Part shown: positions 1 to 63,993 of the stretch, one piece after another | Numbering within the stretch: position 1 is the first letter of the stretch | Layout of the letters: each line of letters starts with the position of its first letter | From: Bacteroidaceae bacterium | Lineage (GTDB): Bacteria > Bacteroidota > Bacteroidia > Bacteroidales > Bacteroidaceae | Assembly (NCBI GenBank): GCA_045220575.1 | Contig: JBGUVX010000032.1 | Location: 4,055 to 68,054 of the forward strand | Direction of reading: 5' to 3' | Length of the DNA: 64,000 nucleotides | Position numbers and translations under genes: made by a program | The notes under the pieces: model-generated | What the model was told of the DNA's origin: nothing | The model's database searches: none | What the model saw: only the letters and a program-made list of their open reading frames with translations

Positions 1-1721
1 GCGAAGAAGGCGTAGATGGGAATCTTGGCCGTGCAGGACATGAAGGGAGTGAGCAGGATGGTCATGCGGCGGTCGCGCTCGCTCGGCAGCGTGCGGCTGG
101 CCATGACGCTGGGCACCGAGCAGCCAAAACCGATGAGCAGGGGCACTATGCTGCGGCCCGAGAGTCCCAGACGGCGCAGCAGTTTGTCAGTGACGAAGGC
201 TATGCGAGCCATGTAGCCCGTGTCCTCAAGCATGCTGAGGAAGAAGAACAGGCAGACAATGAGGGGCAGGAACACCAACACTGTACCCACGCCGTTGTAG
301 ATGCCGTCGATGATGAGCGAATGCACCGCAGGGGCAATGTTCCAACTGGTGAGTGCCTGGTCGCTAATCTCCGTGAACCAGTCGATGCCCGTCTGGAACA
401 GGTCTTGCAGCCATGCGCCGACGGAGGAGAAGGTGAGGTAGAAGACCAGTCCCATGATGAGTACGAACGACGGAAGGGCCGTCCAGCGACCCGTCAGGAT
501 GCGGTCGATGCGGCGGCTGCGGATGTGCTCGTGGCTCTCCCGCGGCTTCACTACGGCCTGACGGGTTACGGCCTCGATGAACTTGAAGCGCATGTCGGCA
601 ATGGCAGCCTGACGGTCGAGCCCGCGCTCCTGCTCCATCTGCACGACGATGTGCTCCACCGTCTCACGCTCGTTCTGCGTCAGCCCCAGCGCCTCAGCCA
701 CCAAGGCGTCGCCCTCTGCCAGTTTGCAGGCAGCAAAGCGGGCTGGGATGTCGGCCCGCTGGCAATGGTCCTCGGTCAGGTGCATGATGGCGTGCAGACA
801 GCGGTGTACGGCACCTCCGTGGTCGTCGGGGTGGCAGAAGTCCTGCCGCTGCGGACGTTCCTGATAGCGGGCGATGTGCAGGGCATGGGCCACAAGTTCG
901 TCCACACCCTCGTTCTTCATCGCCGAGATGGGCACCACAGGCACTCCCAGCAGGGCCTCCATGCGGTTGATGCGCACCGTGCCCCCGTTGGCCTCCAGCT
1001 CGTCCATGATGTTCAGCGCCACCACCATCGGCACGCCCAGCTCCATCAACTGCAGCGTCAGGTAGAGGTTGCGCTCGATGTTCGTGGCGTCAACGATGTT
1101 AATGATTGCCGTGGGGTGCTCGTCCAAGATGTAGCGGCGGCTTACCACCTCCTCGCTCGTGTAGGGCGACAGGCTGTAGATGCCCGGCAGGTCGATGACC
1201 TGAGCCTCGGGGTGACCCTTGATGGTGCCGTACTTGTGCTCCACCGTCACACCCGGGAAGTTTCCCACATGCTGGTTGGCCCCCGTCAGTTGGTTGAAGA
1301 GCGTGGTCTTGCCGCAATTCTGGTTTCCCGCCAGCGCAAAGGTCAGGCGCTGGGTGGCAGGCAGCGGCTTCGCATGCGCCTCCGGCGACTCGTCGTGGTA
1401 GTGGCCGCCCTCACCCAGTCCCGGGTGCTCTATCTGCGACTGGAACTCCGCCTCGTCCCCCTCTTCACCATCAACCTCTAATCCTTCACCATCAACCCTT
1501 AATCCTTCAACCTCTATCTCCCCTGCCTCGGCAATGCGCAACGTCAGTTCGTAGCCGTGGATGCGCACCTCCATCGGGTCGCCCATGGGCGCAAACTGCA
1601 CCAGTGCCAGTTCGGCACCAGGTATCATGCCCATGTCCAGCAGATGCTGGCGAAGGGCACCCTCGCCGCCCACAGCGACAATGCGTGCCCTTTGTCCTAT
1701 TTTCAGTTCACTCAGTTTCAT
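1..1721 (-). CDS. feoB: Fused FeoA-FeoB ferrous iron transporter (N-terminal ~573 aa; C-terminus lies beyond the window start)
   Basis: My own minus-strand translation from the ATG at 1719-1721 gives MKLSELKIGQRARIVAVGGEGALRQHLLDMGMIPG (FeoA-like). A linker follows, then LTFALAGNQNCGKTTLFNQLTG (G1), DLPGIYSL (G3) and membrane segments. The ORF runs off the window, so it is absent from the ORF track. The + ORFs 321-1481, 649-864 and 874-1065 are its antisense shadows. Confidence 0.9.
   Translation of the reverse strand, partial: MKLSELKIGQRARIVAVGGEGALRQHLLDMGMIPGAELALVQFAPMGDPMEVRIHGYELTLRIAEAGEIEVEGLRVDGEGLEVDGEEGDEAEFQSQIEHPGLGEGGHYHDESPEAHAKPLPATQRLTFALAGNQNCGKTTLFNQLTGANQHVGNFPGVTVEHKYGTIKGHPEAQVIDLPGIYSLSPYTSEEVVSRRYILDEHPTAIINIVDATNIERNLYLTLQLMELGVPMVVALNIMDELEANGGTVRINRMEALLGVPVVPISAMKNEGVDELVAHALHIARYQERPQRQDFCHPDDHGGAVHRCLHAIMHLTEDHCQRADIPARFAACKLAEGDALVAEALGLTQNERETVEHIVVQMEQERGLDRQAAIADMRFKFIEAVTRQAVVKPRESHEHIRSRRIDRILTGRWTALPSFVLIMGLVFYLTFSSVGAWLQDLFQTGIDWFTEISDQALTSWNIAPAVHSLIIDGIYNGVGTVLVFLPLIVCLFFFLSMLEDTGYMARIAFVTDKLLRRLGLSGRSIVPLLIGFGCSVPSVMASRTLPSERDRRMTILLTPFMSCTAKIPIYAFF
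1463..1520. repeat. 21-bp (3x7) tandem repeat inside the feoAB linker
   Basis: CTTCACCATCAACCTCTAATC / CTTCACCATCAACCCTTAATC / CTTCAACCTCTATCTC. It encodes EVEGLRVDGEGLEVDGE in frame. Confidence 0.85.
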
Positions 1722-9092: not shown

Positions 9093-9241
9093 CATTACAG
9101 ATTACAATTACAGTTAGGGTAGAGGCGTTTTGAAACTTGTTACTTACAATCTTTAATCTATTATATTTATTATATATTAATATATAATAACCATCTGTAT
9201 TCATTTTTCTGAAAACCTATCTGTAATCTGTAATTGTAATG
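9093..9241. mobile_element. MITE-like unit: 21-bp heptamer-word terminal inverted repeats around an AT-rich core
   Basis: Left arm CATTACAGATTACAATTACAG (9093-9113) and right arm CTGTAATCTGTAATTGTAATG (9221-9241) are 19/21 complementary. The core contains the perfect 18-bp palindrome TTATATATTAATATATAA (9170-9187). Confidence 0.6.
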
Positions 9242-15441: not shown

Positions 15442-15539
15442 TAAAGTTTAAAGTTTATGGTTTAGAGTTTAGAGGCTTGGTTTTTCAATTTTCACTTCTC
15501 ACTTCTCAATCTTCAATTTTCAATCTTCAATTATTTAAT
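15442..15539. repeat. Heptamer-phased tract (14 words)
   Basis: TAAAGTT TAAAGTT TATGGTT TAGAGTT TAGAGGC TTGGTTT TTCAATT TTCACTT CTCACTT CTCAATC TTCAATT TTCAATC TTCAATT ATTTAAT. It fills the spacer between the stop at 15531 and the fumarate hydratase start at 15438. Confidence 0.85.
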
Positions 15540-15956: not shown

Positions 15957-15990
15957 TTAATTAAAAATTAAAAATTAAAAATTAAAAATT
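15957..15990. repeat. (AAAAATT)x4 heptamer tract
   Basis: TTAATT then four perfect AAAAATT units, located between divergent -7 boxes. Confidence 0.9.
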
Positions 15991-29381: not shown

Positions 29382-30404
29382 CTAATAAGGCTTGCGGTAG
29401 CGGTCCTCGTCCTTGTCGTCGAGCATTCCTAAATAAGAGGTATAGCGGCTCTGGGCGATGCGTCCCTCCTCCAAGGCCTGCAGGACGGCGCAGCCAGGTT
29501 CGTGGGTGTGGGTGCAGTCCTGGAAACGGCACTCCTGCCCGATAGTGAAGATTTCGCGGAAATAATGTCCCACCTCCGTGCGTTCGATGTCGAAGGTGCC
29601 AAAGCCCTTGATGCCCGGCGTGTCGATGAGACTGCCGCCCGTTGGCAGGTCGAAGAGTTCGCTGTAGGTGGTGGTGTGCTGCCCGGTATCGTGGGAAAGG
29701 CTGATTTCCTCCGTTCGCGCCTTCAAGCCGGGAATGAGGGCATTCAGCAGCGTGCTCTTGCCCACACCGCTGTTTCCGCTCAGCAGGGTGGTCTTGTCGC
29801 AGAGCAACTGGGTAAGCGGCGCTATTCCCTCGCCCGTAAGTGCCGAGCAGGGCACGCAGGTATAGCCAATTGCGCTATACAGCTCCACCAGTTGACGCAT
29901 GCGATTCTGCGCCATTTCATCATAAATATCGGTCTTGTTGAAGACCAGGATGACAGGCACCCTGTAGGCCTCTGCAGTAGCGAGGAAACGGTCAACAAAG
30001 GTGGTGCTGGTTTCCGGGTGGGCAATGGTGACGAGCAGCAGCACCTGGTCGACATTGGCAGCCAGGATGTGGCTTTGCTTAGAAAGGTTCGAGGCCTTGC
30101 GGATGATGTAGTTACGACGGTCGCAGATGTCGGTTATCAGCCCGACAAGTTCTGAGTTCAAAGTGCTGAGTGCTGAGTTTCCGCTGCCATTAGACGTTGA
30201 ATCCTCCGAACTCTGAACTCCCAACTCCGAACTGGCCGCAATATTAGCGGCCTTAAATACTACCCTGTCGCCCACGGCAACAGGATTGGTGCTGCGAATG
30301 CCGCGAAGGCGGAAGTTGCCCTTCACCTTGCACGAAAAAAGCTGGTCGTCGTCCGTGCGGACAACGTACCAGCTTCCTGTGTTCTTGATGACTGTACCAA
30401 TCAT
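29382..30404 (-). CDS. rsgA: Ribosome small-subunit-dependent GTPase A, with a 28-aa in-frame repeat insertion in the OB domain
   Basis: OB domain (VAVGDRV), circularly permuted GTPase motifs ([19 protein letters not shown]) and a Zn knuckle ([16 protein letters not shown]). The extra segment [28 protein letters not shown] is encoded by 30149-30232. Confidence 0.9.
30149..30232. repeat. 84-bp palindromic heptamer element inserted in frame in rsgA
   Basis: Left arm GTTCTGA GTTCAAA GTGCTGA GTGCTGA GTTTCCG. Right arm TCCGAAC TCTGAAC TCCCAAC TCCGAAC, which is the reverse complement of GTTCGGA/GTTGGGA/GTTCAGA words. 12x7 nt = 28 codons. Confidence 0.8.
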
Positions 30405-31000: not shown

Positions 31001-31049
31001 AATAATTCTTAATTCTTAATTCTTAATTCTCAATTTATTTGTATTTTTG
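31001..31049. repeat. Heptamer tract (CTTAATT words)
   Basis: AATAATT CTTAATT CTTAATT CTTAATT CTCAATT TATTTGT ATTTTTG. The last word overlaps the VTC -7 box. Confidence 0.85.
31042..31049 (+). promoter_or_regulatory. -7 box TATTTTTG for the VTC cluster
   Basis: Perfect TAnnTTTG, 10 nt before the ATG at 31060. Confidence 0.5.
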
Positions 31050-31881: not shown

Positions 31882-32589
31882 ATGGATTTCACTCTGATTA
31901 ACAACCAATTGGGCGACATGTTCGGTGTTACCCTATTCGACCCCCAGCAATTCATCTCGCTGGTACTGCGCTTTGTGATTAACCTGGTAGTGGTGTTCAC
32001 CATTGCCCGCTTCTTCTACTATCCACACAGCCGCAGGCGCGACTACATGTTCATCTTCATCCTCATGTCAATGAGCATCTTCCTGCTCGTGAGCCTGATG
32101 GAAGGCGGAGGCATGGAACTGGGAGCCGCTATGGGTCTGTTCGCCATCTTCGGCATCATGCGCTTCCGTACAGAAGCCGTACCCATCCGCGAGATGACCT
32201 ACCTGTTCATGCTGATTGCCGTCAGCGTAATCAACGCCGTTGCCCAAGGCGACTACCACCCGAAGGCACAGTACTGGGACGGCGTGGGCATTGTCACCAT
32301 CCTTTTCGTGAACCTCGTCTTCATCCTGATGGCTTGGCTCTTCGAGTCGAGCAAGATTATGACCGACAGTTGCTCGAAGTACATCAAGTACGATAACGTG
32401 GCTCTGGTGGCTCCCGACAAGCGCGAGGAGCTGAAGGCAGACCTTGAGAAGCGTACGGGACTGAAGATTCAGCGCATCGAGGTGGGCATGATCGACTACC
32501 TGAAGGATGCCGTCCTCATCCGCATCTTTTACAACGAGAAGATGGACCGCGGCAGCAGCATCGAGGGAATGACGAAGATGCCAAGATAA
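31882..32589 (+). CDS. DUF4956-like membrane protein
   Basis: 235 aa with 4-5 TM helices and a soluble C-terminal domain. Its position directly after a VTC gene is the usual pairing, from memory. Confidence 0.65.
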   Translation: MDFTLINNQLGDMFGVTLFDPQQFISLVLRFVINLVVVFTIARFFYYPHSRRRDYMFIFILMSMSIFLLVSLMEGGGMELGAAMGLFAIFGIMRFRTEAVPIREMTYLFMLIAVSVINAVAQGDYHPKAQYWDGVGIVTILFVNLVFILMAWLFESSKIMTDSCSKYIKYDNVALVAPDKREELKADLEKRTGLKIQRIEVGMIDYLKDAVLIRIFYNEKMDRGSSIEGMTKMPR

Positions 32590-32635
32590 TTAAGAGTTAA
32601 GAGTTAAGAGTTAAGAATTAAAAGATAAATAAAGA
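32587..32635. repeat. Heptamer tract (GAGTTAA words), inverted relative to 31001-31049
   Basis: TAATTAA GAGTTAA GAGTTAA GAGTTAA GAATTAA AAGATAA ATAAAGA. It spans exactly from the DUF4956 stop to the next ATG. Confidence 0.85.
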
Positions 32636-36084: not shown

Positions 36085-36085
36085 T

Positions 36086-37004: not shown

Positions 37005-37093
37005 GAAGGCCTAATATTTACGATTGCACTTTTATATGCTCCTATGACATTATAATATTTGGACTATACCGAAGTGCTTGAAGTCCACGAGGC

Positions 37094-37375: not shown

Positions 37376-37383
37376 TATATTTG
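37376..37383 (+). promoter_or_regulatory. -7 box TATATTTG for 37429-39467
   Basis: Perfect TAnnTTTG, 45 nt before the ATG at 37429. Confidence 0.5.
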
Positions 37384-37428
37384 TATACAATACATCTCTT
37401 CCAAATAAGATTCTAAATCTTTAAAGCA

Positions 37429-39467: not shown

Positions 39468-39667
39468 ACTGCATCAACGAACATGAGAGTCATAGGGACG
39501 GCTTCGCTAACCTTATGAGGGCATTTACGAATAGAAAAACCGCATTTGTCACTCAGTTAGGTGGCAGGTGCGGTAGAACGCGAAAGGGCAGATAAAAGGG
39601 CAGATAAACAAATATATAAAAGGAGATTAACATCCCGAACCACAAACTATCGACTATTGGAAAGAAA

Positions 39668-39709
39668 CACCGCACTTGTCACTCATCGTGGCAGGTGCGG
39701 TTTGGTTTT
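39668..39709. terminator. Strong hairpin terminator between convergent genes
   Basis: CACCGCACTTGTCAC-TCATC-GTGGCAGGTGCGGT (about 14 bp including G-U pairs) followed by TTTGGTTTT. A related hairpin lies at 39539-39574. Confidence 0.75.
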
Positions 39710-39872
39710 GTGGTGAAGCAGGGGCGGTTAGAAGGCGCGTTCGGCCCAGTCGCTACGGTCGAGGTTGCGGTAGCCGATGGCTTCGGCGATGTGGTGGGAT
39801 TGCAGGTATTCACATCCTATGTTCCGATGGCGGACTGCCTTGGCACGATGATGGGGTGATGTCTGCGAAGGG

Positions 39873-42437: not shown

Positions 42438-42521
42438 AGTTGTAACTTATTGGTTGAGTTATTTAATTTCCGTTTGTCTATTTACCATCTGACGATTTAT
42501 GATTTATCATTTACCGTTTAT
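42438..42521. repeat. Heptamer-phased spacer (12 words)
   Basis: AGTTGTA ACTTATT GGTTGAG TTATTTA ATTTCCG TTTGTCT ATTTACC ATCTGAC GATTTAT GATTTAT CATTTAC CGTTTAT. It is the whole comM-to-esterase spacer. Confidence 0.75.
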
Positions 42522-42523
42522 TG

Positions 42524-44083
42524 TCACTCTCCCCACGTTTCGCGGTCGAGACTGCGGTAACCGATGGCCTCGGCAATATGCTGGCGCTGCACCTTCTCCG
42601 AGCCTTCGAGGTCTGCAATGGTGCGGGCCACCTTCAAGATGCGAGTGTAGGCACGAGCCGAGAGGCTTAGCTTCTCCATAGCCATTCGCAGCATATCGAA
42701 ACTCTGTGCATCGGGTTCGGCAAACTGGTGCAGCATCTTTTCCGTCATTTGTGCATTGCAATAGATGCGTGAGGCGCCCTCGGCAATAGGGAGCGAACGG
42801 AAACGCTCTTCCTGAATCTGTCTTGCCTTGATGACTCGCTCTCGAATCTTTTCGCTTGGTTCCCCTGGCTGCATCTGACTAAGCTGAGCAAAGGGCACGG
42901 GCTGTATCTCGCACTGGATGTCTATGCGGTCGAGCAGCGGGCCGCTGATTTTGCTCATATACTGCTGGATGCGACCGGGCGTGCAGGTACAGGTGTGGGT
43001 AGGGTCGCCATAATAGCCGCAGGGGCATGGATTCATGCTGGCAACGAACATGAAGGATGCAGGATAGGTGACGGCATAGCGAGCACGGGATACGTTGATA
43101 ATCCTGTCCTCCAAAGGCTGGCGCAGGACTTCGAGCACCGAACGCGAAAACTCTGGCAATTCATCAAGGAAAAGAACTCCATTGTGAGCCAGGCTAATCT
43201 CGCCCGGCTGCGGGTTTTGTCCACCTCCCACGAGAGCCACCTGTGAGATGGTATGATGAGGCGAGCGGAAGGGACGCTGGGCAATGAGCGACGTATCGCG
43301 GTTCAGCTTTCCTGCCACAGAATGAATCTGTGTCGTTTCCAAGCTTTCGCTGAGCGTAAGAGGTGGCAATATGGTTGGAAGCCGCTTGGCCAACATGGAC
43401 TTTCCACTTCCCGGCGGCCCTATCATTATCATATTGTGCCCTCCAGCAGCAGCCACCTCCATCGCACGCTTCACAGCCTCTTGTCCCTTGACATCTGCAA
43501 AGTCCAGCTCAAAGTCATTCTGGCGACGATAAAACTCCTCGCGCGTCTGCACCTCGGTAGGTGAGATGGCAAGTGGGGTGTCGTTGAGCAGGTCGATGAC
43601 CTGTTGCATGTTGTCGGCCCCGTAGACCTGCAACTTATTGACCACAGCAGCCTCACGCACATTCTGCTGAGGCACGATGAGCCCTTCGTAACCTTGTTCA
43701 CGAGCCATTATGGCTATGGGCAAGGCACCACGTATGGGCAGCAGGGAACCGTCGAGACTGAGTTCGCCCACCATCAGGAACTTCGGCAGGCGCTCGGTAG
43801 AAACTTCACCCGCCGTAGCCATAATGCCGATGGCTATGGGCAGGTCATAAGCCGAGCCTTCCTTCTTCAGGTCGGCAGGCGTGAGGTTCACCGTCAGGTT
43901 CTGCATGGGGAAGCGGTAGCCGCTGTTCTGAATGGCAGCCACAATGCGCTGGTAGCTTTCCTTAACCGCATTGTCCGGGAGTCCCACGAGGAAGAAGTGC
44001 ATACCTCGCGAGGCATTTACCTCCGTCGTTACGGGAATGGCTTCCAAACCCTGTACTGCTGCTGCGTGAACCTTAACGAGCAT
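42524..44083 (-). CDS. comM: YifB/ComM-family Mg-chelatase-like AAA+ ATPase
   Basis: 519 aa. Lon-like N-domain, Walker A (IGPPGSGKSMLAKRL), FLDELPEF, and a C-terminal ChlI-like domain. Confidence 0.9.
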   Translation of the reverse strand: MLVKVHAAAVQGLEAIPVTTEVNASRGMHFFLVGLPDNAVKESYQRIVAAIQNSGYRFPMQNLTVNLTPADLKKEGSAYDLPIAIGIMATAGEVSTERLPKFLMVGELSLDGSLLPIRGALPIAIMAREQGYEGLIVPQQNVREAAVVNKLQVYGADNMQQVIDLLNDTPLAISPTEVQTREEFYRRQNDFELDFADVKGQEAVKRAMEVAAAGGHNMIMIGPPGSGKSMLAKRLPTILPPLTLSESLETTQIHSVAGKLNRDTSLIAQRPFRSPHHTISQVALVGGGQNPQPGEISLAHNGVLFLDELPEFSRSVLEVLRQPLEDRIINVSRARYAVTYPASFMFVASMNPCPCGYYGDPTHTCTCTPGRIQQYMSKISGPLLDRIDIQCEIQPVPFAQLSQMQPGEPSEKIRERVIKARQIQEERFRSLPIAEGASRIYCNAQMTEKMLHQFAEPDAQSFDMLRMAMEKLSLSARAYTRILKVARTIADLEGSEKVQRQHIAEAIGYRSLDRETWGE

Positions 44084-44086
44084 AGT

Positions 44087-44503
44087 CTATTCTTCGTTGA
44101 GAATTTCCTGAAGCGGCATCATCACGAATTCGCGTTCGTTGATGTGGGGATGCGGCAGCACAAGGTCGGGTTCTTCGATGTGCAAGTCGTCATACATCAG
44201 CAGGTCGATGTCGATGGTGCGATCCTGAAAGAGACCGTTCTCCGTTTTATCGGTACGTCCCAACTGACGCTCGATACGCTGCGACTCCTTCAGACAACGC
44301 TGTGGCGAGAGCGTGGTGATGACCAGTGCGGCGGCATTGAGGAATTCATTCTCGGACTCGAATCCCCAAGGTGCCGTTTCATAGTACGACGACACACGAA
44401 CAACCTGCCCGATGCGTTCGTCAACCAGTTGCAACGCCTCGTCGAGCAAAGCCTTACGGTCGCCCAGATTACTGCCCAGACCAATATACAACTTGTGTTC
44501 CAT
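44087..44503 (-). CDS. folK: 2-amino-4-hydroxy-6-hydroxymethyldihydropteridine diphosphokinase
   Basis: Starts at the ATG at 44503 ([16 protein letters not shown]), which forms an ATGA overlap with the queA stop. Contains IDIDLL, LVLPHP. Confidence 0.88.
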   Translation of the reverse strand: MEHKLYIGLGSNLGDRKALLDEALQLVDERIGQVVRVSSYYETAPWGFESENEFLNAAALVITTLSPQRCLKESQRIERQLGRTDKTENGLFQDRTIDIDLLMYDDLHIEEPDLVLPHPHINEREFVMMPLQEILNEE

Positions 44504-45567
44504 CAGTCTTGAATAATAAGCATGGCATCGCCGTAAACGCCAAAGCGGTAGCGCTTGTCGTGAAGGGCTTCGTTGTAGGCTTTCATAATACGTTCGTAGC
44601 CACCGTAGGCACAAGTGAGCATGAGCATCGTGCTCTGTGGCATATAGAAATTAGCCACCATAGCATCGGCTATCTGGAACTCGTAGGGAGGGAAGATGAA
44701 GCGGTTGGTCCAGCCCTCGAATTCCTTTATCTTTCCATCGGCAGAAACGGCTGTTTCGAGAACACGCTGCACGGTGGTACCCACGGCACAAATCTTGTTT
44801 CCCTCTTCCTTGGCCTTGTTCACGGCATCGCAAGCCTGCTGTCCGACGTGCATCTCCTCGCTGTCCATCTTGTGCTTGGTCAGGTCTTCGACATCGATTT
44901 CGCGGAAGTTACCCAAACCGCAATGCATGGTGACATAGGCAAACTCGATACCCTTGATTTCCATGCGCTTCAACAGTTGGCGCGAGAAGTGGAGTCCTGA
45001 GCAAGGAGCCGTCACGGCACCTTCGTTACGGGCATAGATGCACTGGAAGTTTTCCATGTCATCGGGCTCAGACGGACGCTTTATCATCTCCTTCGGCAGC
45101 GGAGCCTCACCAAGGGCAAAGAGTGCCTGCTTGAATTCTTCGTGGTCGCCATCGTAGAGGAAGCGAAGCGTACGACCGCGGCTTGTGGTATTGTCGATGA
45201 CTTCGGCCACCATAGAATCGTCCTGACCAAAATAAAGTTTGTTGCCGATACGAATCTTTCGTGCCGGGTCGACGAGGACGTCCCACAGGCGTAACTTCTC
45301 ATTCAACTCCCGAAGCAGGAACACCTCAATCTTGGCACCTGTCTTCTCCTTGTTACCATAGAGGCGGGCAGGGAACACCTGCGTGTCGTTGAACACGAAA
45401 ACATCCTTCTCATCGAAATAATCCAGTATGTCACGGAACTGATCACGATGTTCGATGACGCCACTCTTGGTATGAATGACCATCAGTCGGCAATCGTCAC
45501 GATAGGGGGTGGGATACTGTGCTATGCGTTCCTCTGGAAGTTTGTAGTTGAATTGTGAAAGCTTCAT
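44503..45567 (-). CDS. queA: S-adenosylmethionine:tRNA ribosyltransferase-isomerase
   Basis: 354 aa. [41 protein letters not shown]. Confidence 0.95.
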
Positions 45568-45630
45568 ATAAACAATTTAACGATTAACTATTTACAATTT
45601 ATTTACGATTTACTATTACCGATTTGACAA
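45568..45630. repeat. Heptamer tract (ATTTAC words)
   Basis: ATAAACA ATTTAAC GATTAAC TATTTAC AATTTAT TTACGAT TTACTAT TACCGAT TTGACAA. It covers the truB stop and the spacer up to the queA start. Confidence 0.8.
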
Positions 45631-46313
45631 TGTTCGAGCCACGACTCGAAGTCGTCAATCTGCATACATTGCTCCACCCGAACATCAGCAATTCGTGTGC
45701 GGCGCAGGGCAATGAGGTGTGCCCCACTCTGCAGGGCCTGCCCTATGTCGCGAGCCAAGGCCCTTATATAGGTTCCCTTGCTGCAGACAATGCGAAGGGT
45801 CAGTTGCATCTTCCCTGCATCGAATGCCACAAGCTCCAGTTCATCGATAACCAGAATCTTCGGTTTCAACGGCACATCCTCGCCCCGTCGGGCCAGTTTG
45901 TACGCCCTGTGCCCATCGACCTTGCAGGCAGAGAAGGCAGGGGGAACCTGCTCGATGCGTCCCATGAAACGGGGCAGAATCTGCTGAATGAGCTCAAGGG
46001 TGATGTGTTCGGTGGGATAGGTCTGGTCTATGGGTTTCTCCAAGTCGAAGCAGGGCGTGGTGGCTCCCAGTTGCAAGGTTGCCACATATTCCTTGGTGCC
46101 TGCCTGCAGTTCATCGATGCGCTTTGTGGCGCGACCGGTGCAAACGATGAGCACCCCTGTTGCCAGAGGGTCGAGTGTGCCGGCATGTCCCACCTTCAAT
46201 TTCTTCAGACCGAGGCGCTGACAAAGCATCCAGCGCACCTTGGCCACCAGATTAAACGATGTCCAACGCAGCGGTTTGTCGAAATAGAGAATCTGTCCTT
46301 CTTCGAAATCCAT
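45603..46313 (-). CDS. truB: tRNA pseudouridine(55) synthase
   Basis: 236 aa. KVGHAGTLDPLATGVL catalytic block. The last ~8 codons (CQIGNSKS) are encoded by a heptamer tract. Confidence 0.93.
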   Translation of the reverse strand: MDFEEGQILYFDKPLRWTSFNLVAKVRWMLCQRLGLKKLKVGHAGTLDPLATGVLIVCTGRATKRIDELQAGTKEYVATLQLGATTPCFDLEKPIDQTYPTEHITLELIQQILPRFMGRIEQVPPAFSACKVDGHRAYKLARRGEDVPLKPKILVIDELELVAFDAGKMQLTLRIVCSKGTYIRALARDIGQALQSGAHLIALRRTRIADVRVEQCMQIDDFESWLEHCQIGNSKS

Positions 46314-46353
46314 ATTTCTTTGTTTTGCCCGGATAGCACCGGGTCATCCAAGG

Positions 46354-47157
46354 TTATCCCAGGAAGATTAGCAGCAAACCTACGATGGCACAATAGATGC
46401 CAAAGTAGATGAGTTTTCCACGGCGTACAATACCTATCATCCAACGGCAAGCCAGACATCCGCTGACGAAAGCAGCCAGAAAACCTGCCACAAGAGGCCA
46501 CAGTCCTATGCCGGCTGTTGCAGCCTCCGTCCCTTCCTTCATGGCCTTCATGACATCGAGCAATGCCTCACCTAATATGGGAGGTATGACCATCAGGAAG
46601 GAGAACTGTGCCAGCTTCTCCTTCTTGTTACCCAACAAAAGACCCGTGGCAATGGTGCTGCCCGAACGGCTGAGGCCTGGCAGGACGGCTGCGGCCTGAG
46701 CCAATCCGATGATGAAGGCATCTCCTAAAGAAACATACTCCTTACGGCGAGGTTTGGCGTAGTAGCTGAAAATGAGCAAAGCAGCCGTCAGCAGCAGGCA
46801 GCAGCCGACGACAAACAGTCCAGCGCCGAATATCTCTTCAACGTAGTCCTTAAAGAATACGCCCACAATGCCCACGGGAATCATTGAGACCAAGATGGCC
46901 AAAGCATAGCGCTGTTCGGCATTCATGGCTCCGTCCCACTTGAAGAGGCCGCGCAATATCCACACGATTTCCTTCCACAGGATGACGAGTGTAGAGAGCA
47001 CCGTAGCCACATGTACGGCAACGGTAAATGTAAGGTTCTGCTCTCCGTCGACACCCAAGAAATGCGATGCAATGGTCAGATGACCACTGCTCGATACGGG
47101 CAGGTACTCCGTCAGTCCCTGCAGTATGCCCATCAATATGGCTTCAATCGTACTCAT
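46354..47157 (-). CDS. uppP: Undecaprenyl-diphosphate phosphatase
   Basis: 267 aa. [18 protein letters not shown] and PGLSRSG motifs. Confidence 0.93.
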
Positions 47158-47384
47158 GCCTTGTCGCTGGGTTTATGCATAATACCATAAATCATGAACA
47201 GGAATCCCAGGAAGCATACCACTGGGGCCACCTTGATGCGCTGGGCGCTGAAGATGTCAGCATTGAAGGTGGTCTCGTTGCTACCCGAGCCAGCCATCAA
47301 CACAAAGCCCAGAATGATGACAACCATGCCGATAGCCAGCAGGATGTAGTTCATTCGGCCAAATGCAAAATCTTTCTTACTCAT
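47154..47384 (-). CDS. DUF3098-like small 2-TM protein
   Basis: 76 aa with two TM helices. ATGA overlap with uppP. Its position between ftsX and uppP is typical of Bacteroidota, from memory. Confidence 0.7.
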
Positions 47385-47412
47385 ATCTAATGTTTAGTCG
47401 TTAATGTGAGTT
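47385..47412. repeat. Short heptamer tract
   Basis: ATCTAAT GTTTAGT CGTTAAT GTGAGTT. It is the whole ftsX-to-DUF3098 spacer. Confidence 0.6.
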
Positions 47413-48284
47413 TAACCGTAAAGCTCCTTTTCGCGCATGGAGAGGAAGTGGCTGACGCTGATGAAGGTGCAGAGCAGCGTCAAAAGCAATCCGCAGCCCA
47501 AGACTGCCAAAGCCGTAATGATGACATTCTCCTGCGTAACATAGGCCTGCATAACAGGGTCGTAGTTCCACAGCGCACGGATGCCTCCGAGCAAGACGGC
47601 ATCGGCCAACACGCTTGCAGCCAGTCCTATCCACAAGGCACGCAGCATGAAGGGACGTCGGATGAATCCCCAACTGGCACCCACGAGCTTCATGGTGTGT
47701 ATGATGAAGCGACGCGAATAGACCGACAGGCGCACGGTATTGTTGATGAGCACCAGCGTAACGAGCAACAGCAGAATCGCAATGCCCAGCAGTACGTAGG
47801 TCACTTTACGCAGGTTGCTGTTCAGTCGCTCTATCAGTTCCTTCTGGTATATGACGTCCGTCACCAGTTTGTTGCTCTTCAGGCGCTTGCTTATCCACAG
47901 CAGGCTGTCGGTGCAGGCATAGTCAGCTACGAGGTACAGTTCCAGCGAGGGGGTGAAAGGGTTCACTCCTCCCAGGAAGTCTGTTGGATCGGTGCCCAAG
48001 GCTTCGGTCTGCTCTTCGAGAGCCTGTTCGCGGCTGATGAAGGTGATGTCCTTCACCCAGGGACGTTTCTCAAGCTTTGCCTTGTAGTCGAGCGCATCCT
48101 GATTCGAGGCGTCGTCGCCCATCATCACCATGACGGTCAGGCTTTCCCTCACACTCTCGCTCAACTGTCGGGCGGTGAGGGCACAAATGACAACCAGCCC
48201 CATCAGTATGAGCACAAAGGTCGTACTGATGGTGCTGGTGAGGGCCTGCCAACGCAGGGATATCTTCTTTCTTTTTCTTGGCAT
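47412..48284 (-). CDS. ftsX: FtsX-like cell-division permease
   Basis: 290 aa with 4 TM helices and a periplasmic loop; FtsX topology. Confidence 0.8.
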   Translation of the reverse strand: MPRKRKKISLRWQALTSTISTTFVLILMGLVVICALTARQLSESVRESLTVMVMMGDDASNQDALDYKAKLEKRPWVKDITFISREQALEEQTEALGTDPTDFLGGVNPFTPSLELYLVADYACTDSLLWISKRLKSNKLVTDVIYQKELIERLNSNLRKVTYVLLGIAILLLLVTLVLINNTVRLSVYSRRFIIHTMKLVGASWGFIRRPFMLRALWIGLAASVLADAVLLGGIRALWNYDPVMQAYVTQENVIITALAVLGCGLLLTLLCTFISVSHFLSMREKELYG

Positions 48285-48291
48285 TACACAG

Positions 48292-48326
48292 CGCTTAGTT
48301 CTTCACTTCTATTTCTTAATCCTTCA
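48292..48326. repeat. Heptamer tract (CTT words)
   Basis: CGCTTAG TTCTTCA CTTCTAT TTCTTAA TCCTTCA. It overlaps the stop of the CoA-transferase gene. Confidence 0.65.
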
Positions 48327-49830
48327 AATACTCAGCCCAGTCGGTCAAGCGCATATCACCTTTGCGCAGGAAGGTATCGTGCATGGCAAAGGCAGCGCTG
48401 AGGCAGTGGTGAGTGTGACCACCCGTCTTCTCGGCATACTTCAGGTAGTCCATCAGCATGGGGCGATAGTCGGGATGAGCCACCTTGATGAGTTCGAGGC
48501 TCTTCTGCATGTCGCTCTTGTGACGCAGGTCAGCCACGCCGTATTCCGTAATCACGGCATTGACAAAGTGGTTGGTGTGGTCGATGTGGCTGGCGAAGGG
48601 CACGATGCTCGAAATGGCACCACCCTTGGTGGTAGAGCCGCAGGTGAAGATAGAGAGGTAGGCATTATTCGTGAAGTCGGCGCTTCCACCGATGCCGTTC
48701 ATCATCTTCGTACCGCAAATCTTGGTGGAGTTGACGTGTCCATAGAGGTCAACCTCGATAGCAGTGTTCAGCGAGCAAACGCCGATGCGTGCAATGACTT
48801 CGGGATTGTTGGAGATTTCGGAGGGACGCAGCACCAGCTTGTCCTTAAAGAAGTCCATATCACGATAGATGCCCTTCATGCACTCGTTTGTGACGGTGAG
48901 CGAGCAGGCAGAGGCAGAGAGCACGCGGCCCTCGCGCATCAATTCGATGGGAGCATCCTGCAGCACCTCGGTGTAGATGTTGAAGTTGGGCACCTCGGGG
49001 CACTGTCCCAGTGCGCCCAGCACGGCGTTTGCACCACTGCCCACACCGCTCTGCAGGTTCAGGAATGTGGGAGGAATCTTGCCTGCCTTCATGTTTGCCA
49101 GCAGGAAGTCGGCTACGTTCTGACCAATCTGTGTGGTGATGGGGTCGGCATCCTTGAACGAACGGGCCTCATCGGGGATATTGCCCTCTACAACGCCTAC
49201 GATGCGGTCGGCATCCACCTCGATATAGGGTTTACCGATGCGGTCGCTGGGCTTCATAATCATGATGGGCTTACGGTAGGGATGGTCCTCTATCTCGTAA
49301 ACGTCGTGAATGCCCATTCCGCTACGCTCGTGGAAGGCGTTCAGCTCGATGATGATGCCCTCGGTGGCCAGTCGGCAGACAGTGGGGGCGATACCGCCGG
49401 CAGCAGTCAGGTAGATGTGTGCCTTGTTGCCAACCTTCTCGATAGCGCAAGCCTCGATAATAGCCCAGTTGACAGGGCCAAGATAGCCTTGGCGAATCTG
49501 CGTGGCCATGTTCGAGAGGTTCAGGTCGCTATAGTTCAGCTCGTTCAGGTTCACGTGTTTACGGAAGTCAGGGTTCGTAGTGTAGGGGGCGCGGAAGTCG
49601 ATTGCCTGTGCGTTCGACATAGCACCGTCGCAGCTCTGACCCGTAGAGGCTCCCGTAAAGATGTTTACCTTGTAGGGGCGTCCGGCAGCATGTTCTGCCT
49701 CTGCCAGCTTAGCAATCTCGGCAGTAGTCATCTTGGCTGTGCCGGCAGGTGTGAATCCACTCAATCCGATGGTCTGACCATTCTTTACCAACGCTGCAGC
49801 TTCGGCAGCGGTAATTTTATTGAAATCCAT
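48316..49830 (-). CDS. Acetyl-CoA hydrolase/transferase family protein (succinate/acetate CoA-transferase type)
   Basis: 504 aa. GLSGFTPAG, SGVGSGANAVL, and the EVDLYGHVNST...NGIGGSADF blocks. Confidence 0.88.
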   Translation of the reverse strand: MDFNKITAAEAAALVKNGQTIGLSGFTPAGTAKMTTAEIAKLAEAEHAAGRPYKVNIFTGASTGQSCDGAMSNAQAIDFRAPYTTNPDFRKHVNLNELNYSDLNLSNMATQIRQGYLGPVNWAIIEACAIEKVGNKAHIYLTAAGGIAPTVCRLATEGIIIELNAFHERSGMGIHDVYEIEDHPYRKPIMIMKPSDRIGKPYIEVDADRIVGVVEGNIPDEARSFKDADPITTQIGQNVADFLLANMKAGKIPPTFLNLQSGVGSGANAVLGALGQCPEVPNFNIYTEVLQDAPIELMREGRVLSASACSLTVTNECMKGIYRDMDFFKDKLVLRPSEISNNPEVIARIGVCSLNTAIEVDLYGHVNSTKICGTKMMNGIGGSADFTNNAYLSIFTCGSTTKGGAISSIVPFASHIDHTNHFVNAVITEYGVADLRHKSDMQKSLELIKVAHPDYRPMLMDYLKYAEKTGGHTHHCLSAAFAMHDTFLRKGDMRLTDWAEYLKD

Positions 49831-49863
49831 ATTGTTTTAGTTTTGATTTTGGTTTAGCGCGTG

Positions 49864-49871
49864 CAAAGATA
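49864..49871 (-). promoter_or_regulatory. -7 box TATCTTTG for the CoA-transferase gene
   Basis: Reverse complement of CAAAGATA; 34 nt upstream of the ATG at 49830. Confidence 0.55.
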
Positions 49872-49875
49872 CAAT

Positions 49876-49920
49876 AATTTAATTAAAAATTAAAATATTG
49901 AAAATTAAAATTTGATTTGA
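49876..49920. repeat. Heptamer tract (TTAAAAA words)
   Basis: ...TTAAAAA TTAAAAT ATTGAAA ATTAAAA TTTGATT TGA. It lies between the pyrH stop and the CoA-transferase promoter. Confidence 0.75.
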
Positions 49921-49924
49921 GGGC

Positions 49925-50635
49925 TCAATTATGCACGAGCGTACCTATTTCCTCGCCTGCCATCACCTTCTTCAGGTTGCCGACGATGTCCATGTTGAAG
50001 ACGTAGATGGGCAGGTCGTTCATCTTACACATGGTAGTGGCTGTCAGGTCCATCACCTTCAGACCGCGGTTGTAAATTTCGTCGTAGGTGATTTCCTTGA
50101 ACTTCGTAGCCGTGGGGTCTTTCTCCGGGTCGGCGGTATAAACGCCATCTACACGTGTTCCCTTCAGCATCACGTCGGCCTCAATCTCTATGCCGCGAAG
50201 CGAAGAGCCCGTGTCGGTAGTGAAGTAGGGATTGCCTGTCCCGCCACTCATGATGACCACCTCGCCGCGCTCCATTGCCTCGATGGCCTTCCATTTAGTG
50301 TACAGCTCGCCGATGGGTTCCATGCGGATAGCCGTCAGCACCGTCGTCTTTTGTCCGATGGCTTGCAGGGCACTGCACAGGCCCAGCGAGTTGATGACGG
50401 TTGCCAGCATTCCCATCTGGTCGCCCCTGACGCGGTCGAAGCCCTTGCCGGCTCCAGTCAGACCGCGGAAGATGTTTCCGCCTCCGATGACGATTCCCAC
50501 CTGGACACCCATGTCCACTACTTCCTTAATCTGACGTGCATAGTCGTTCAGACGGTTCACGTCGATGCCATAACCCTGTTCTCCCTGCAGGCTCTCGCCC
50601 GAGAGCTTCAGCAGAATTCTCTTAAACTTTGCCAT
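49925..50635 (-). CDS. pyrH: UMP kinase
   Basis: 236 aa. RILLKLSGE, VIGGGNIFRG, TGNPYFTTD. Confidence 0.96.
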   Translation of the reverse strand: MAKFKRILLKLSGESLQGEQGYGIDVNRLNDYARQIKEVVDMGVQVGIVIGGGNIFRGLTGAGKGFDRVRGDQMGMLATVINSLGLCSALQAIGQKTTVLTAIRMEPIGELYTKWKAIEAMERGEVVIMSGGTGNPYFTTDTGSSLRGIEIEADVMLKGTRVDGVYTADPEKDPTATKFKEITYDEIYNRGLKVMDLTATTMCKMNDLPIYVFNMDIVGNLKKVMAGEEIGTLVHN

Positions 50636-50677
50636 AATATCTTAATTCTTAACTCTTAATTTTTAATTCTTAATTTG
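50636..50677. repeat. Heptamer tract (TAATTCT words), inverted relative to 49876-49920
   Basis: AATATCT TAATTCT TAACTCT TAATTTT TAATTCT TAATTTG. It encodes the birA C-terminal KLRIKN plus stop, and the whole birA-pyrH spacer. Confidence 0.85.
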
Positions 50678-51891: not shown

Positions 51892-51928
51892 AACCTGATG
51901 GCAACGCGATGCCGATATCAAAACCACA

Positions 51929-52017: not shown

Positions 52018-52237
52018 CGACGTGTTGTTAACGATAAGACGACGTGTCGTATCCTTCGAAGCGACGTGTCGTTAGTTTAAAAGGATAATTATCCGACATC
52101 GATAGGATAATTATCCGATGGCATTAACATAATTATCCGTTTGTGATAGGATAATTATCCTGTTTTGAAAAGATAATTGCACGAGTAAAGCAACGATACG
52201 TCGCTTGGAGGCAAACAACGTGTCGCTCCGCCTGTTT
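52018..52237. repeat. Ten contiguous 22-bp phased units: 3x CGACGTGT(C/T)G, 5x (G)GATAATTATCC-type, 2x ACGT(G)TCGC-type
   Basis: Units start at 52018, 52040, 52062, 52084, 52106, 52128, 52150, 52172, 52194 and 52216. The perfect 12-bp palindrome GGATAATTATCC occurs at 52083, 52105 and 52149, with degenerate copies at 52127 and 52171. Confidence 0.9.
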
Positions 52238-63619: not shown

Positions 63620-63993
63620 CTTACTACTATTTTATAGGTCTTTTCTTTTGTCTTCACGATGTACACACCATGAGGTAATTTACCATTTGACAATTTACTA
63701 TTTACAATTTTCTTTCCGCTGAGGTCGTAGATAGAATCGTCCGATTCTAAATCGTCCAATTGTCCAATTGTCTCAATACCCGTAGTCTCGTCGGCATCCG
63801 AGAAGTACATCTTGGCAAGGTTCACGAGGGTGAACGACTGCGAACCAGCCTTCAGCGTGGTCCCGCTGATGCTCAGCGACAGCGACTCAACAGGCACAGA
63901 CACCCGTGCCCCGTCCGTAGTCTCAAAGGTCAGGTAGGGAAAGCCCTCGGCATTTACCGCGATTGCTCCCACAGACATGAGCAACGTTAACAT
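63616..63993 (-). CDS. Small secreted protein with a T9SS-like tail (paralogue of 33491-33847)
   Basis: 125 aa. PYLTFETTDGARVSVPVESLSLSI...LAKMYFSD module; tail IYDLSGKKIVNSKLSNGKLPHGVYIVKTKEKTYKIVVR. The ATG lies 7 nt from the window end. Confidence 0.65.
   Translation of the reverse strand: MLTLLMSVGAIAVNAEGFPYLTFETTDGARVSVPVESLSLSISGTTLKAGSQSFTLVNLAKMYFSDADETTGIETIGQLDDLESDDSIYDLSGKKIVNSKLSNGKLPHGVYIVKTKEKTYKIVVR
63676..63717. repeat. Heptamer tract inside the T9SS tail of 63616-63993
   Basis: TAATTTA CCATTTG ACAATTT ACTATTT ACAATTT TCTTTCC. It encodes KIVNSKLSNGKLP on the minus strand. Confidence 0.7.

Follow-up and report, generated by a model that had tools for sequence, protein, structure and literature searches.

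Heptanucleotide arrays at gene junctions of a Bacteroidaceae contig and its Prevotella-type relatives

Heptamer tracts in the window

The window, by which we mean the whole 64-kb stretch of DNA analysed, carries tandem tracts with a 7-nt period in gene spacers, next to promoters and within genes. A sliding lag-match scan (28-nt sliding window, at least 80% identity, lags 2-24) found lag 7 to be the sole short tandem period enriched, with six strict tracts; the other lags in this range gave none except the multiples 14 and 21 and one tract at lag 22. Across 24 short intergenic spacers, lag-7 identity was 0.371, where dinucleotide shuffles gave 0.297 +/- 0.011 (z=6.9), with further signals at lag 14 (z=3.9) and lag 21 (z=4.3). 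This places the period-7 signal described in an earlier sequence-only reading well above chance. TRF called period-7 arrays at 9094, 9219, 15445, 15482, 15959, 30162, 30204, 31003, 32590, 42494, 45575, 49881, 50635 and 63677. That reading had claimed fourteen or more tracts; in per-tract shuffles allowing for any lag from 4 to 12, ten of the fifteen listed (those at 1463, 15442, 15957, 30149, 31001, 32587, 42438, 45568, 50636 and 63676) were individually significant and five (9093, 9221, 47385, 48292 and 49876) were not. The test is weak for the 49876 tract because its composition is A/T-only; TRF does call it. The five non-significant tracts would be expected if the arrays were chance, compositional or assembly artefacts of A/T-rich spacers, a view that is almost certainly wrong: it is refuted by the enrichment of lag 7 alone at z=6.9, by base-for-base recurrence in the independent assemblies L083, L209 and L211, and by an excess that holds over 1.47 Mb of related loci.

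Tracts at junctions and promoters outside the comM-to-birA run:
9093..9118, no strand: ATTACAG triplets, left arm of an inverted pair (TRF; inverted-repeat match; period 7 not significant alone)
9216..9241, no strand: CTGTAAT triplets, right arm, pairing with 9093..9118 (TRF; inverted-repeat match; period 7 not significant alone)
15442..15539, minus: two adjoining heptamer arrays (TRF, lag scan, p<0.0005)
15957..15990, no strand: AATTAAA x4.6, perfect (TRF 100% matches; lag-7 identity 0.93)
31001..31049, no strand: TAATTCT x4.7 array (TRF, lag scan, shuffles)
32587..32635, plus: TTAAGAG x4.6 array (TRF, lag scan, shuffles)

The inverted ATTACAG and CTGTAAT arms, with 97 nt of A/T-rich DNA between them, lie in a 465-nt divergent spacer separating an SPFH/zinc-ribbon gene from a GDSL lipase gene. 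The arrays at 15442..15539 (sense words ATTGAAR/AGTGAGA, then CTCTAAA/CTTTAAA) make up the entire 92-nt spacer from ORF 15531-15938 to fumarate hydratase (13798-15438), and the TTAAGAG array takes up all 45 nt between the stop of the DUF4956 gene and the start of the DUF2490 gene. Three window arrays lie upstream of Bacteroidetes -7 promoter boxes, and such arrays, on that promoter's own evidence, would not be transcribed. The perfect AATTAAA array fills the gap between divergent -7 boxes at 15944-15951 (minus) and 16006-16013 (plus), as the TAATTCT array does between those of frr (30990-30997, minus) and a VTC-domain gene (31042-31049, plus).

Tracts in the comM-to-birA run:
42438..42521, minus: degenerate RTAAATN array constituting the 86-nt spacer between comM and the GDSL lipase gene (TRF core only; shuffle p=0.0035)
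45568..45630, minus: GTAAATN array covering the last 9 truB codons and the 35-nt spacer before queA (TRF; p=0.0015)
47385..47412, minus: ftsX-to-DUF3098 spacer, 27 nt, a claimed tract at chance level (no TRF call, p=0.69)
48292..48326, minus: CoA-transferase-to-ftsX spacer, a claimed tract at chance level (no TRF call, p=0.45)
49876..49920, minus: A/T-only AATTAAA-type array (TRF 4.1 copies, 83%; shuffles not significant)
50636..50677, minus: TTAAGAR x5.7 covering the last 7 birA codons and the 20-nt spacer before pyrH (TRF, lag scan, shuffles)

All six had been put forward as tracts; those at 50636 and 45568 are strong, 42438 is moderate, 49876 is doubtful, and 47385 and 48292 do not rise above chance. 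The 49876..49920 array immediately precedes the -7 box (49864-49871, minus) of the acetyl-CoA hydrolase/transferase gene. For truB, birA and the CoA-transferase, the C-terminal tails given in the earlier reading agree with the translations.

Tracts inside genes:
1463..1520, minus: 21-nt (3x7) in-frame repeat in the feoAB linker (TRF period 21, 2.2 copies, 92% matches; p=0.0135)
30149..30232, minus: two stop-free heptamer arrays in opposite orientations (TRF, Pfam, translation)
63676..63717, minus: AAATTGT/AAATAGT array, in frame (KIVNSKLSNGKL), in ORF 63616-63993 (TRF, translation, p=0.004)

Almost all tracts had been said to sit at gene junctions; about 12 of 15 do, and these three lie within the feoAB linker, the rsgA loop and ORF 63616-63993. 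The 1463..1520 repeat does not mark a plus-strand gene end; it is coding on the minus strand, where it encodes GEGLEVD-type units between the FeoA (aa 61-132) and FeoB_N (aa 187-339) Pfam domains of feoAB (3-1901); the plus-strand ORF 321-1481 has no Pfam match. The arrays at 30149..30232 (sense words AGTTCGG-type, then AACTCAG-type) are translated in frame into a 30-aa insert, located in a loop of the N-terminal (RsgA_N) domain of RsgA (29382-30404); RsgA homologues span 305-380 aa with length variation confined to this loop, and L206 and L207 too have heptamer DNA at the site. The end of ORF 63616-63993 resembles a T9SS C-terminal sorting domain; because this ORF has no Pfam match, its coding status rests on codon score and that motif. 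Stop-free in-frame arrays also occur inside birA of relatives. Within genes, only stop-free in-frame arrays in tolerant loops or linkers survive.

Lineage and turnover of the arrays

The window belongs to the Prevotella lineage, its source being an uncultured Bacteroidales genome from the rumen. We compared it with 80 related loci (1.47 Mb together), in which genes were called with our own codon-score caller. Lag 7 accounts for 87 arrays in this set, lag 8 for 19 and lag 9 for 7; lags 5, 6 and 10-13 have 0-5 each. In 80 viral contigs there were 223 arrays at lag 7 versus 5-18 at other lags; one heptamer pattern served as the seed for these contigs and is missing from 136 of the 223 lag-7 arrays. 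Non-coding DNA of the window, of its closest MAG relatives and of Prevotella-titled loci carries 0.6-1.0 lag-7 arrays per kb, and no lag-7 arrays were found in 56 kb of non-coding DNA from Bacteroides/Phocaeicola loci or in the Paraprevotella loci sampled. The arrays are common throughout rumen Prevotella-type Bacteroidales and absent from the sampled sister-genus loci.

Between strains, indels were found within the tracts. L212, about 0.5% diverged from the window over lipase, comM, folK and queA, differs from it over 3,971 nt by two 7-nt gaps only, both within tracts: at 42438..42521 it differs by exactly one ATAAATC unit and is otherwise identical, and at 45568..45630 it shares one extra 7-nt unit with L213. 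Over 4 kb of L083, the sole indel is of 4 nt and lies within the birA-pyrH tract 50636..50677. In these two near-identical-strain comparisons, all three indels thus fall in tracts and two are exactly 7 nt. Substitution was also faster in the truB-queA tract; a recombination boundary may account for part of this, since truB has diverged by 3% and its neighbours by 0.5%.

Between species, the words themselves differ at the truB-queA, ftsX-DUF3098, birA-pyrH and frr-VTC junctions. At birA-pyrH, L081 and L001 have two decayed copies, L010 an AAAATTN array and L007 a GC-rich hairpin; L081 and L001 also have no array matching 49876..49920. In the sister species L210, a TTTTCAC array replaces TAATTCT at frr-VTC, and the DUF4956-DUF2490 spacer consists of TTAAAAA-type units instead of TTAAGAG, every unit having changed together while spacer length stayed constant. 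Arrays gain and lose whole 7-nt units, and their words turn over fast. The sequence-only reading had proposed comparing junctions in close relatives, and had said that tracts unconserved in position or type would speak against its idea; neither word nor copy number is conserved.

Period specificity, word turnover and the confinement of indels to tracts argue that the tracts are heptanucleotide simple-sequence repeats, microsatellite-like, most probably made by unit-wise slippage and filtered by selection. Among the origins suggested earlier, decayed slippage repeats is the one that the evidence supports; ends of a mobile-element family do not fit arrays with no common flanking sequence and 45 canonical words among 70 arrays. 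Replication slippage or unequal exchange, intrinsically biased towards 7-nt units, would create such repeats, and selection would set where they persist and in which orientation. The same bias has been noted before in prokaryotes at large. A polymerase-based cause of the 7-nt unit is a published conjecture, and nothing here accounts for the unit size.

One-unit differences between strains, in arrays located in promoters and leaders, recall contingency loci, in which frequent copy-number switching alters promoter spacing or leader length and hence expression; Haemophilus influenzae hmw ATCTTTC is the model and the known heptamer precedent (PMC12721329). We consider this extremely unlikely here: the arrays are short (3-7 units), their neighbours are housekeeping genes (pyrH, queA, frr, fumarase), and no link to surface or variable genes was found within the window. 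Moreover, arrays are identical in 100%-identical strain contigs from different samples, and those at 15442..15539 are identical in the same-strain contig L209.

Placement, composition and possible roles

Same-direction and divergent spacers each carry 0.47 arrays per kb, convergent spacers 0.14 and coding DNA 0.015, so that convergent spacers are about 3x poorer (Poisson p=0.009) and non-coding DNA about 30-fold richer than coding. From the end of the array to the start codon the median distance is 7.5 nt, and often the array fills the whole stop-to-start spacer. On the sense strand, arrays whose end is no more than 20 nt from a start codon favour A over T (25:10) and G over C (26:7); this strand is rich in purines and poor in C (A.46, G.18, C.04), a G/C sign opposite to that of ordinary leaders (C>G 243:160). 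Arrays abutting a TAnnTTTG box lean to T over A (12:2) and C over G (10:2; Fisher p about 3e-4), a bias to which the -7 box search, which may slightly favour T-rich arrays, could contribute. In about one-fifth of cases a non-coding array precedes a promoter box, and its orientation is then reversed. This dependence of orientation on context, A/G-rich before starts and T/C-rich before promoter boxes, hints at functional constraint, in which case the arrays would not be neutral and could have a more specific function.

One such function would be an RNA-level binding platform, in which transcribed arrays serve as pads for a single-strand binder with a footprint of about 7 nt (candidates being ribosomal protein S1 domains, a cold-shock-type OB fold or an RRM protein) and act as translation enhancers or regulators replacing Shine-Dalgarno sites. 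The position just before starts and the inverted G/C sign suit it, as do the disuse of Shine-Dalgarno sites in Bacteroidia (PMC6847099, PMC7797042), the binding of one heptamer per CspB protein, and the proposal of S1/Csp for TAACTGA repeats (PMC4679880). We nevertheless judge it unlikely, since 45 canonical words among 70 arrays fit no sequence-specific binder, housekeeping-gene arrays are lost or replaced between close relatives, the promoter-side fifth is oppositely oriented, and the same arrays are found in coding loops. Predicted structure is weaker in array-bearing leaders (-3.5 vs -6.2 kcal/mol, p=4e-4), but the difference vanishes after GC correction and there is none from shuffles of the same sequence; composition explains the effect, and therefore periodicity itself adds nothing measurable to unfolding.

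The sequence-only reading suggested a frame-independent translation barrier, in which three or more copies of a stop-bearing heptamer halt ribosomes in every frame between packed genes. Its arithmetic is right: all three sense frames contain stops in 78% of array spacers versus 47% of array-free spacers of the same loci, and a stop is present in 81% of consensus words in sense versus 42% in antisense. The sense-strand bias of operon-internal arrays (G>C 25:7) also fits a stop-rich alphabet, a barrier prediction that holds and that we attribute to leader composition. The purpose, however, is very unlikely to be the right one, because letter-permuted words carry a stop in 77% of cases, so that word composition explains the stops and the letter arrangement is not selected for them. 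Divergent spacers, into which no ORF reads, are as dense in arrays as same-direction ones and convergent spacers are poorer; some arrays sit upstream of promoters, and stop-free arrays exist within genes. Near relatives lack arrays at the same junctions, as do all Bacteroides/Phocaeicola loci despite equally tight gene packing, and the upstream gene is already ended by its own stop codon.

As slippage-made repeats, persisting arrays may serve as generic spacer DNA. In Bacteroidia, ribosomes take no account of Shine-Dalgarno sequences, and initiation relies on low structure and upstream A residues (PMC6847099, PMC7797042); before starts, arrays would provide A/G-rich, C-poor, weakly structured leaders suited to such initiation, and upstream of -7 boxes they would supply T-rich DNA. 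The all-frame stops and the altered truB and birA C-terminal tails would be by-products.

Comparison with known heptamer repeats

The arrays are real but not a new kind of feature, having been recorded in other bacteria. The earlier statement that no function had been described was fair, although the phenomenon, over-representation of heptamer simple-sequence repeats, had already been described (PMC4060949, PMC4679880, PMC4692102); our literature search on these repeats turned up none that deals with Prevotella. Among long simple-sequence repeats the heptanucleotide class is the most abundant, with polymerase slippage proposed as the cause (Mrazek 2007, as cited in PMC4679880 and PMC4692102), and 7n3 is the only class over-represented in Bacteroidetes (value 0.75; PMC4060949, Table 2). 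Prokaryotic 7n3 repeats (Mrazek, Guo & Shah 2007, as cited by later papers; Huang & Mrazek 2014, PMC4060949) resemble those here in their head-to-tail 7-nt units beyond chance length, preference for period 7 over its neighbours and mainly intergenic location; unlike here, the surveys give statistics without anatomy. Beyond them, we describe restriction to the Prevotella lineage, many words per genome, arrays forming whole operon spacers, context-dependent orientation and in-frame coding arrays.

The TAACTGA repeats of marine Beggiatoaceae, cyanobacteria and a few Bacteroidetes (MacGregor 2015, PMC4679880) are likewise intergenic direct heptamer repeats of 2-6 copies, a few nucleotides upstream of starts at the Shine-Dalgarno position, on housekeeping genes, with occasional copies in ORFs and a stop-containing word; S1, Csp and CsrA were proposed as binders. 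Those genomes have a single dominant word with related words rare, whereas dozens of unrelated words occur here, and the window has no tandem TAACTGA. The GGGAATC (Xanthomonas) and GGGGA(C/T)T (Nostoc) repeats (Rehm et al. 2015, PMC4692102) and, as cited there, the STRR heptamers of heterocystous cyanobacteria are also heptameric and intergenic. Some Xanthomonas/Nostoc repeats are paired in inverted orientation, as are 9093/9221 and the two rsgA arrays here, but they are G-rich, G-quadruplex-capable and drawn from one word family in each genome. Units of the arrays here are A/T-rich and contain one or two G or C, and neither set of words occurs in tandem in the window. Finally, the ATCTTTC repeat in the hmw1/hmw2 5' UTR of Haemophilus influenzae (PMC12721329) shares a 7-nt leader unit whose copy number shifts by slippage; it has at least 11 copies, occurs at two adhesin loci, is hypervariable in culture and works by way of an RNA hairpin that RNase III cleaves. 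The arrays here have 3-7 copies; there are a dozen of them in 64 kb, next to housekeeping genes, and within a strain they are stable.

Period-7 tracts in and around the housekeeping run

Every gene between 39.9 and 51.9 kb lies on the minus strand, and the ftsX-DUF3098-uppP-truB-queA-folK core keeps its synteny in the 45 related genome loci tabulated. The closest matches to the window are uncultured rumen Bacteroidaceae/Prevotellaceae MAGs, with UppP identity of up to 92% (locus L001, RGIG8165).

Genes of the minus-strand run
39873-42437, minus, GDSL lipase
42524-44083, minus, comM
between comM and queA, minus, folK
44503-45567, minus, queA
45603-46313, minus, truB
46354-47157, minus, uppP
47154-47384, minus, DUF3098 gene
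47412-48284, minus, ftsX
48316-49830, minus, acetyl-CoA hydrolase/transferase gene
49925-50635, minus, pyrH
50656-51927, minus, birA

The sequence-only reading had listed 15 tracts of degenerate 7-nt words, and the periodicity it described is largely borne out: TRF recovered each strong tract, and a lag-match scan of the window (28-nt window, 80% identity) found six tracts at lag 7 and none at the other lags from 2 to 13. Across 24 short spacers lag-7 identity was 0.371, where dinucleotide shuffles gave 0.297 (z=6.9), and the signal recurred at lags 14 and 21. Taken singly, in a shuffle test that allowed any lag from 4 to 12, 10 of the 15 tracts passed, and those at 9093, 9221, 47385, 48292 and 49876 failed. 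By TRF, lag scan and shuffles, the tracts consist of a 7-nt unit repeated head to tail in at least three copies and are longer than expected by chance, as heptanucleotide LSSRs are. Several adjoin a recognisable Bacteroidetes -7 promoter box, TAnnTTTG.

The placement of the tracts at gene junctions stands with three exceptions: 1463-1520 is an in-frame 21-nt repeat within the FeoA-FeoB linker, 30149-30232 falls within rsgA, and 63676-63717 falls within an ORF whose end resembles a T9SS sorting domain. Pfam matches nothing in the plus-strand ORF formerly assigned at 1463-1520, which is a shadow ORF. Such opposite-strand ORFs match or exceed real genes in length, both at 321-1481 (plus) and at 48130-49857 (plus), where 575 aa face the 504-aa CoA-transferase of 48316-49830 (minus); picking ORFs by length misassigns strands here, which is what misled the earlier reading at tract 1463. 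Arrays will mislead ORF callers, shadow ORF 321-1481 itself ending inside one.

Elsewhere the window holds repeats of other spacings. At 28228-28311, upstream of a gene at 28428-29351, the near-palindrome GTGCCATAGTATGG occurs four times at 23-nt spacing, a row that looks like operator sites for a putative dimeric regulator. In the divergent spacer upstream of birA (52020-52225) the perfect palindrome GGATAATTATCC recurs every 22 nt, four to five times in all (52082-52178), flanked by four copies of CGACGTGTCG; this arrangement suggests two sets of putative regulator binding sites. Clustered inverted repeats (AACCTCCCC / GGGGAGGTTT) at 35390-35640 precede a low-GC stretch (0.42) at 36000-39870. 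It codes for a protein with a Bro-N domain, a short ORF weakly matching a T9SS tail, and a protein of 543 aa for which Pfam has no match; this is possibly the edge of an acquired island.

Lineage, location and orientation of the arrays

We surveyed the window and 80 related loci (1.47 Mb) with one detection rule applied to every period. Period 7 stood above its neighbours: lag 7 gave 87 arrays, lag 8 gave 19, and the remaining lags between 5 and 13 gave seven at most; the double period, lag 14, gave 51.

Arrays detected at each lag (window and 80 loci)
Lag 5: 0
Lag 6: 1
Lag 7: 87
Lag 8: 19
Lag 9: 7
Lag 10: 5
Lag 11: 2
Lag 12: 3
Lag 13: 1
Lag 14 (multiple of 7): 51

The lag-7 arrays are mostly non-coding, at 0.47 per kb in both same-direction and divergent spacers versus 0.015 per kb in coding DNA; convergent spacers have 0.14 per kb (3 seen versus about 10 expected, p=0.009). 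The window, the MAGs closest to it and the Prevotella-titled loci have 0.6-1.0 such arrays per kb of non-coding DNA, while the Bacteroides/Phocaeicola and Paraprevotella loci of the survey have zero lag-7 arrays, and arrays are absent from the syntenic junctions in Bacteroides and Phocaeicola. Viral contigs chosen by a single heptamer pattern gave 223 lag-7 arrays versus 5-18 at other lags, and 136 of the 223 were built of other words. Four IMG/VR contigs of 3-10 kb (L104, L145, L095 and L111) hold 8-9 heptamer arrays each, of several unrelated words, some in inverted pairs that enclose about 50 nt. A search of JGI metagenomes for the birA-pyrH junction, its gap length left variable, gave no match, and neither did an exact-protein look-up for frr.

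In same-direction spacers the array usually fills the gap, at a median of 11 nt from the stop codon and 7.5 nt to the start codon, and its sense-strand composition is A.43, T.31, G.19, C.06. Whole spacers with an array have A.40, C.11, G.19, T.31; those without one, in the same loci, have A.38, C.17, G.16, T.29. Orientation depends on context: arrays ending within 20 nt of a start codon (n=36) have A>T in 25:10 and G>C in 26:7, whereas those abutting a -7 box (n=14) have T>A in 12:2 and C>G in 10:2 (Fisher's test, p ~3e-4 for each comparison, from a small sample with non-independent orthologous sites and a box search that may be biased towards T-rich arrays). It follows that array orientation is not neutral. 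The G/C bias of ordinary leaders runs against that of leader arrays (C>G, 243:160). Replication-strand bias is ruled out as the cause, because leader and promoter-upstream arrays take opposite orientations on same-direction genes. Leader arrays in divergent spacers, which lie downstream of no ORF, number only about six, too few for testing whether G>C orientation is retained there.

Turnover between species and strains, and arrays inside genes

At orthologous junctions across species, arrays are gained and lost and their words differ. The truB-queA junction carries words that include GTAAATN, GAAGGAT, AGTGAAA, ACATTTT, CACAGTT and TTTCAAT, and its spacer in Bacteroides and Phocaeicola is short, conserved and non-periodic. 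At birA-pyrH the window has five units of TTAAGAR. Two units, both decayed, occur in the relatives L081 and L001, whose PyrH protein is identical; L010 carries an array of AAAATTN there, and L007 a GC-rich hairpin. GC-rich palindromic elements such as ggactctcccccaccccctccctaagcagggaggggag occupy the ftsX-DUF3098 and uppP-truB spacers of L006 and L008 and the birA-pyrH spacer of L007, where other relatives have heptamer arrays; they look like a REP-like element family. In a sister species (L210), the DUF4956-DUF2490 spacer keeps its 45-nt length with TTAAAAA-type units instead of TTAAGAG, between genes of 96-97% nucleotide identity, a concerted replacement; the frr-VTC spacer there holds a different array.

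Within the species, flanks of strain L212 are about 0.5% diverged from the window. In the comM-lipase spacer exactly one ATAAATC unit is the entire difference, and the truB-queA tract differs by one 7-nt unit plus substitutions; these two exact 7-nt gaps are the sole indels in 3,971 nt, the whole-unit length change that is the signature of slippage. The exception is a 4-nt indel relative to the near-identical strain L083, also inside a tract and the sole indel in that comparison. The truB segment at 45631-45966 is 3% diverged in L212, its neighbouring genes about 0.5%. This points to a recombination boundary in or close to the truB-queA array, so that recombination may account for some of the excess substitutions in that tract.

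Arrays also enter coding sequence. RsgA homologues are usually 305-311 aa, ranging up to 380 aa, and a single loop takes up all the extra length; it follows the conserved GDRV motif where the N-terminal (RsgA_N) domain ends. The insert DNA is a heptamer array: GAACTCG seven times in L207, a 21-nt triple twice in L206, and two opposed arrays in the window. Its words are stop-free in all three frames, so that each 21 nt is read as a 7-aa repeat. The BirA loop before IKWPNDIYW holds a similar in-frame array in L001, L007 and L085. At the same point in the window, just before the conserved IKWPNDIYW strand, the biotin-ligase catalytic domain of BirA is interrupted by a DUF559 / Vsr-like endonuclease domain (aa 142-248; ~51183-51504, minus), which is present in L083 and absent from the 265-aa BirA of close relatives L081, L082 and L084; the loop is an insertion hot spot. 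In-frame arrays in the RsgA and BirA loops therefore indicate that the same 7-nt process acts everywhere, with selection keeping only what is tolerated, and they argue against stop codons as the reason for the arrays.

Candidate functions and comparison with known repeat systems

That the tracts might act as frame-independent translation barriers had been proposed from the stop arithmetic, which itself holds: stops in all three frames occur in 78% of array spacers versus 47% of array-free spacers. The barrier function is without support. Stop-containing words make up 81% of the words versus 77% of letter-permuted words, so that there is no excess to mark stops as a selected property, and composition and orientation account for them. 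The barrier interpretation also misfits the distribution of the arrays, which are found in divergent spacers, ahead of promoters and within coding loops, and are absent in relatives.

Array leaders fold less (-3.5 versus -6.2 kcal/mol, p=4e-4), but the difference is gone after GC correction, and the sequences' own shuffles equal it. A terminator scan of 39.8-52.5 kb found no hairpin with a T-run in the junction spacers, and its total of 14 is not raised over shuffles (11 +/- 3). Rfam (gathering thresholds) and tRNA scans of the whole window gave no matches, so the tracts are not known RNA elements. A miniature mobile or REP-type element is also rejected: the arrays share only the repeated word, the words vary by site, no conserved sequence with defined ends recurs among them, and Rfam has no match in the window. 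Word diversity (45 canonical words in 70 arrays) rules out the ends of mobile elements as well as sites of sequence-specific DNA binding. In the H. influenzae hmw leader a heptamer SSR with a function is known (PMC12721329). Phase-variable contingency SSRs would be expected beside surface, restriction-modification or other variable-expression genes; here the arrays flank pyrH, queA, truB, frr, fumarate hydratase, comM and birA. Same-strain contigs of other samples (L209, L211) carry the arrays unchanged, and strains about 0.5% diverged are one unit apart, in consensus assemblies, which cannot show within-population heterogeneity.

The arrays are a real, lineage-wide population of heptanucleotide slippage repeats, of a kind already known and unexplained. 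Reports that 7-nt tandem repeats are over-abundant in the intergenic DNA of bacteria go back to 1990 (cyanobacterial STRR) and 2007 (genome surveys), and we know of no established cause or function for this excess. Our literature search for heptamer repeats in Prevotella or Bacteroidetes found only MacGregor 2015, and nothing on Prevotella. New relative to the literature found are the boundary between Prevotella and Bacteroides, strain polymorphisms of one unit, arrays read in frame within protein loops, and an orientation that depends on context.

It is improbable that the arrays are selected modular cis-elements of the Prevotella lineage, with purine-rich leader and pyrimidine-rich promoter-upstream forms. 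The 7-nt unit would then match the footprint of a lineage-specific machine, either an OB-fold or RRM RNA-binding protein loading Shine-Dalgarno-blind ribosomes or some replisome property that Bacteroides and Phocaeicola lack, and copy number would tune housekeeping-operon expression. Context-dependent strand orientation and the sharp lineage boundary are compatible with such cis-elements.

The arrays rewrite the C-terminal tails of truB and birA, create hypervariable protein loops in RsgA and BirA, and are natural markers for strain typing. The lineage offers a clean natural contrast between rumen Prevotella-type genomes, which have arrays, and Bacteroides and Phocaeicola, whose corresponding syntenic junctions have none; with the strain polymorphisms, concerted replacement, loop arrays and orientation, it makes the questions of why the unit is 7 nt and whether orientation matters testable in culturable organisms.

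In most repeat-rich genomes of prokaryotes heptanucleotides outnumber every other long SSR class, with polymerase slippage over a segment of about 7 nt as the proposed cause, according to Mrazek 2007 as relayed in PMC4679880 and PMC4692102; in the survey by Huang and Mrazek, 7n3 is the sole SSR class over-represented in Bacteroidetes (PMC4060949). Shine-Dalgarno sites are ignored by the ribosomes of Bacteroidia (PMC6847099, PMC7797042). Neither the cyanobacterial STRR (CCCCAGT, TTGGTCA, CAACAGT) nor the G-rich heptamers of Xanthomonas and Nostoc (GGGAATC, GGGGAYT) have a tandem copy in the window. GGGAATC and GGGGAYT repeats differ at the same junctions between close Xanthomonas species and form inverted pairs (PMC4692102). 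At 9093-9241 two ATTACAG triplets lie inverted around 97 nt of A/T-rich sequence with a 24-nt perfect palindrome (9167-9190), like the inverted heptamer pairs of Xanthomonas and of viral contig L104. In Beggiatoaceae, cyanobacteria and five Bacteroidetes, TAACTGA repeats closely precede start codons, with S1, Csp and CsrA as suggested binders (PMC4679880). That system has a dominant word, whereas the window has TAACTGA three times singly and never in tandem, and 70 arrays here use 45 canonical words; the two systems share forward-oriented arrays a few nucleotides upstream of start codons.
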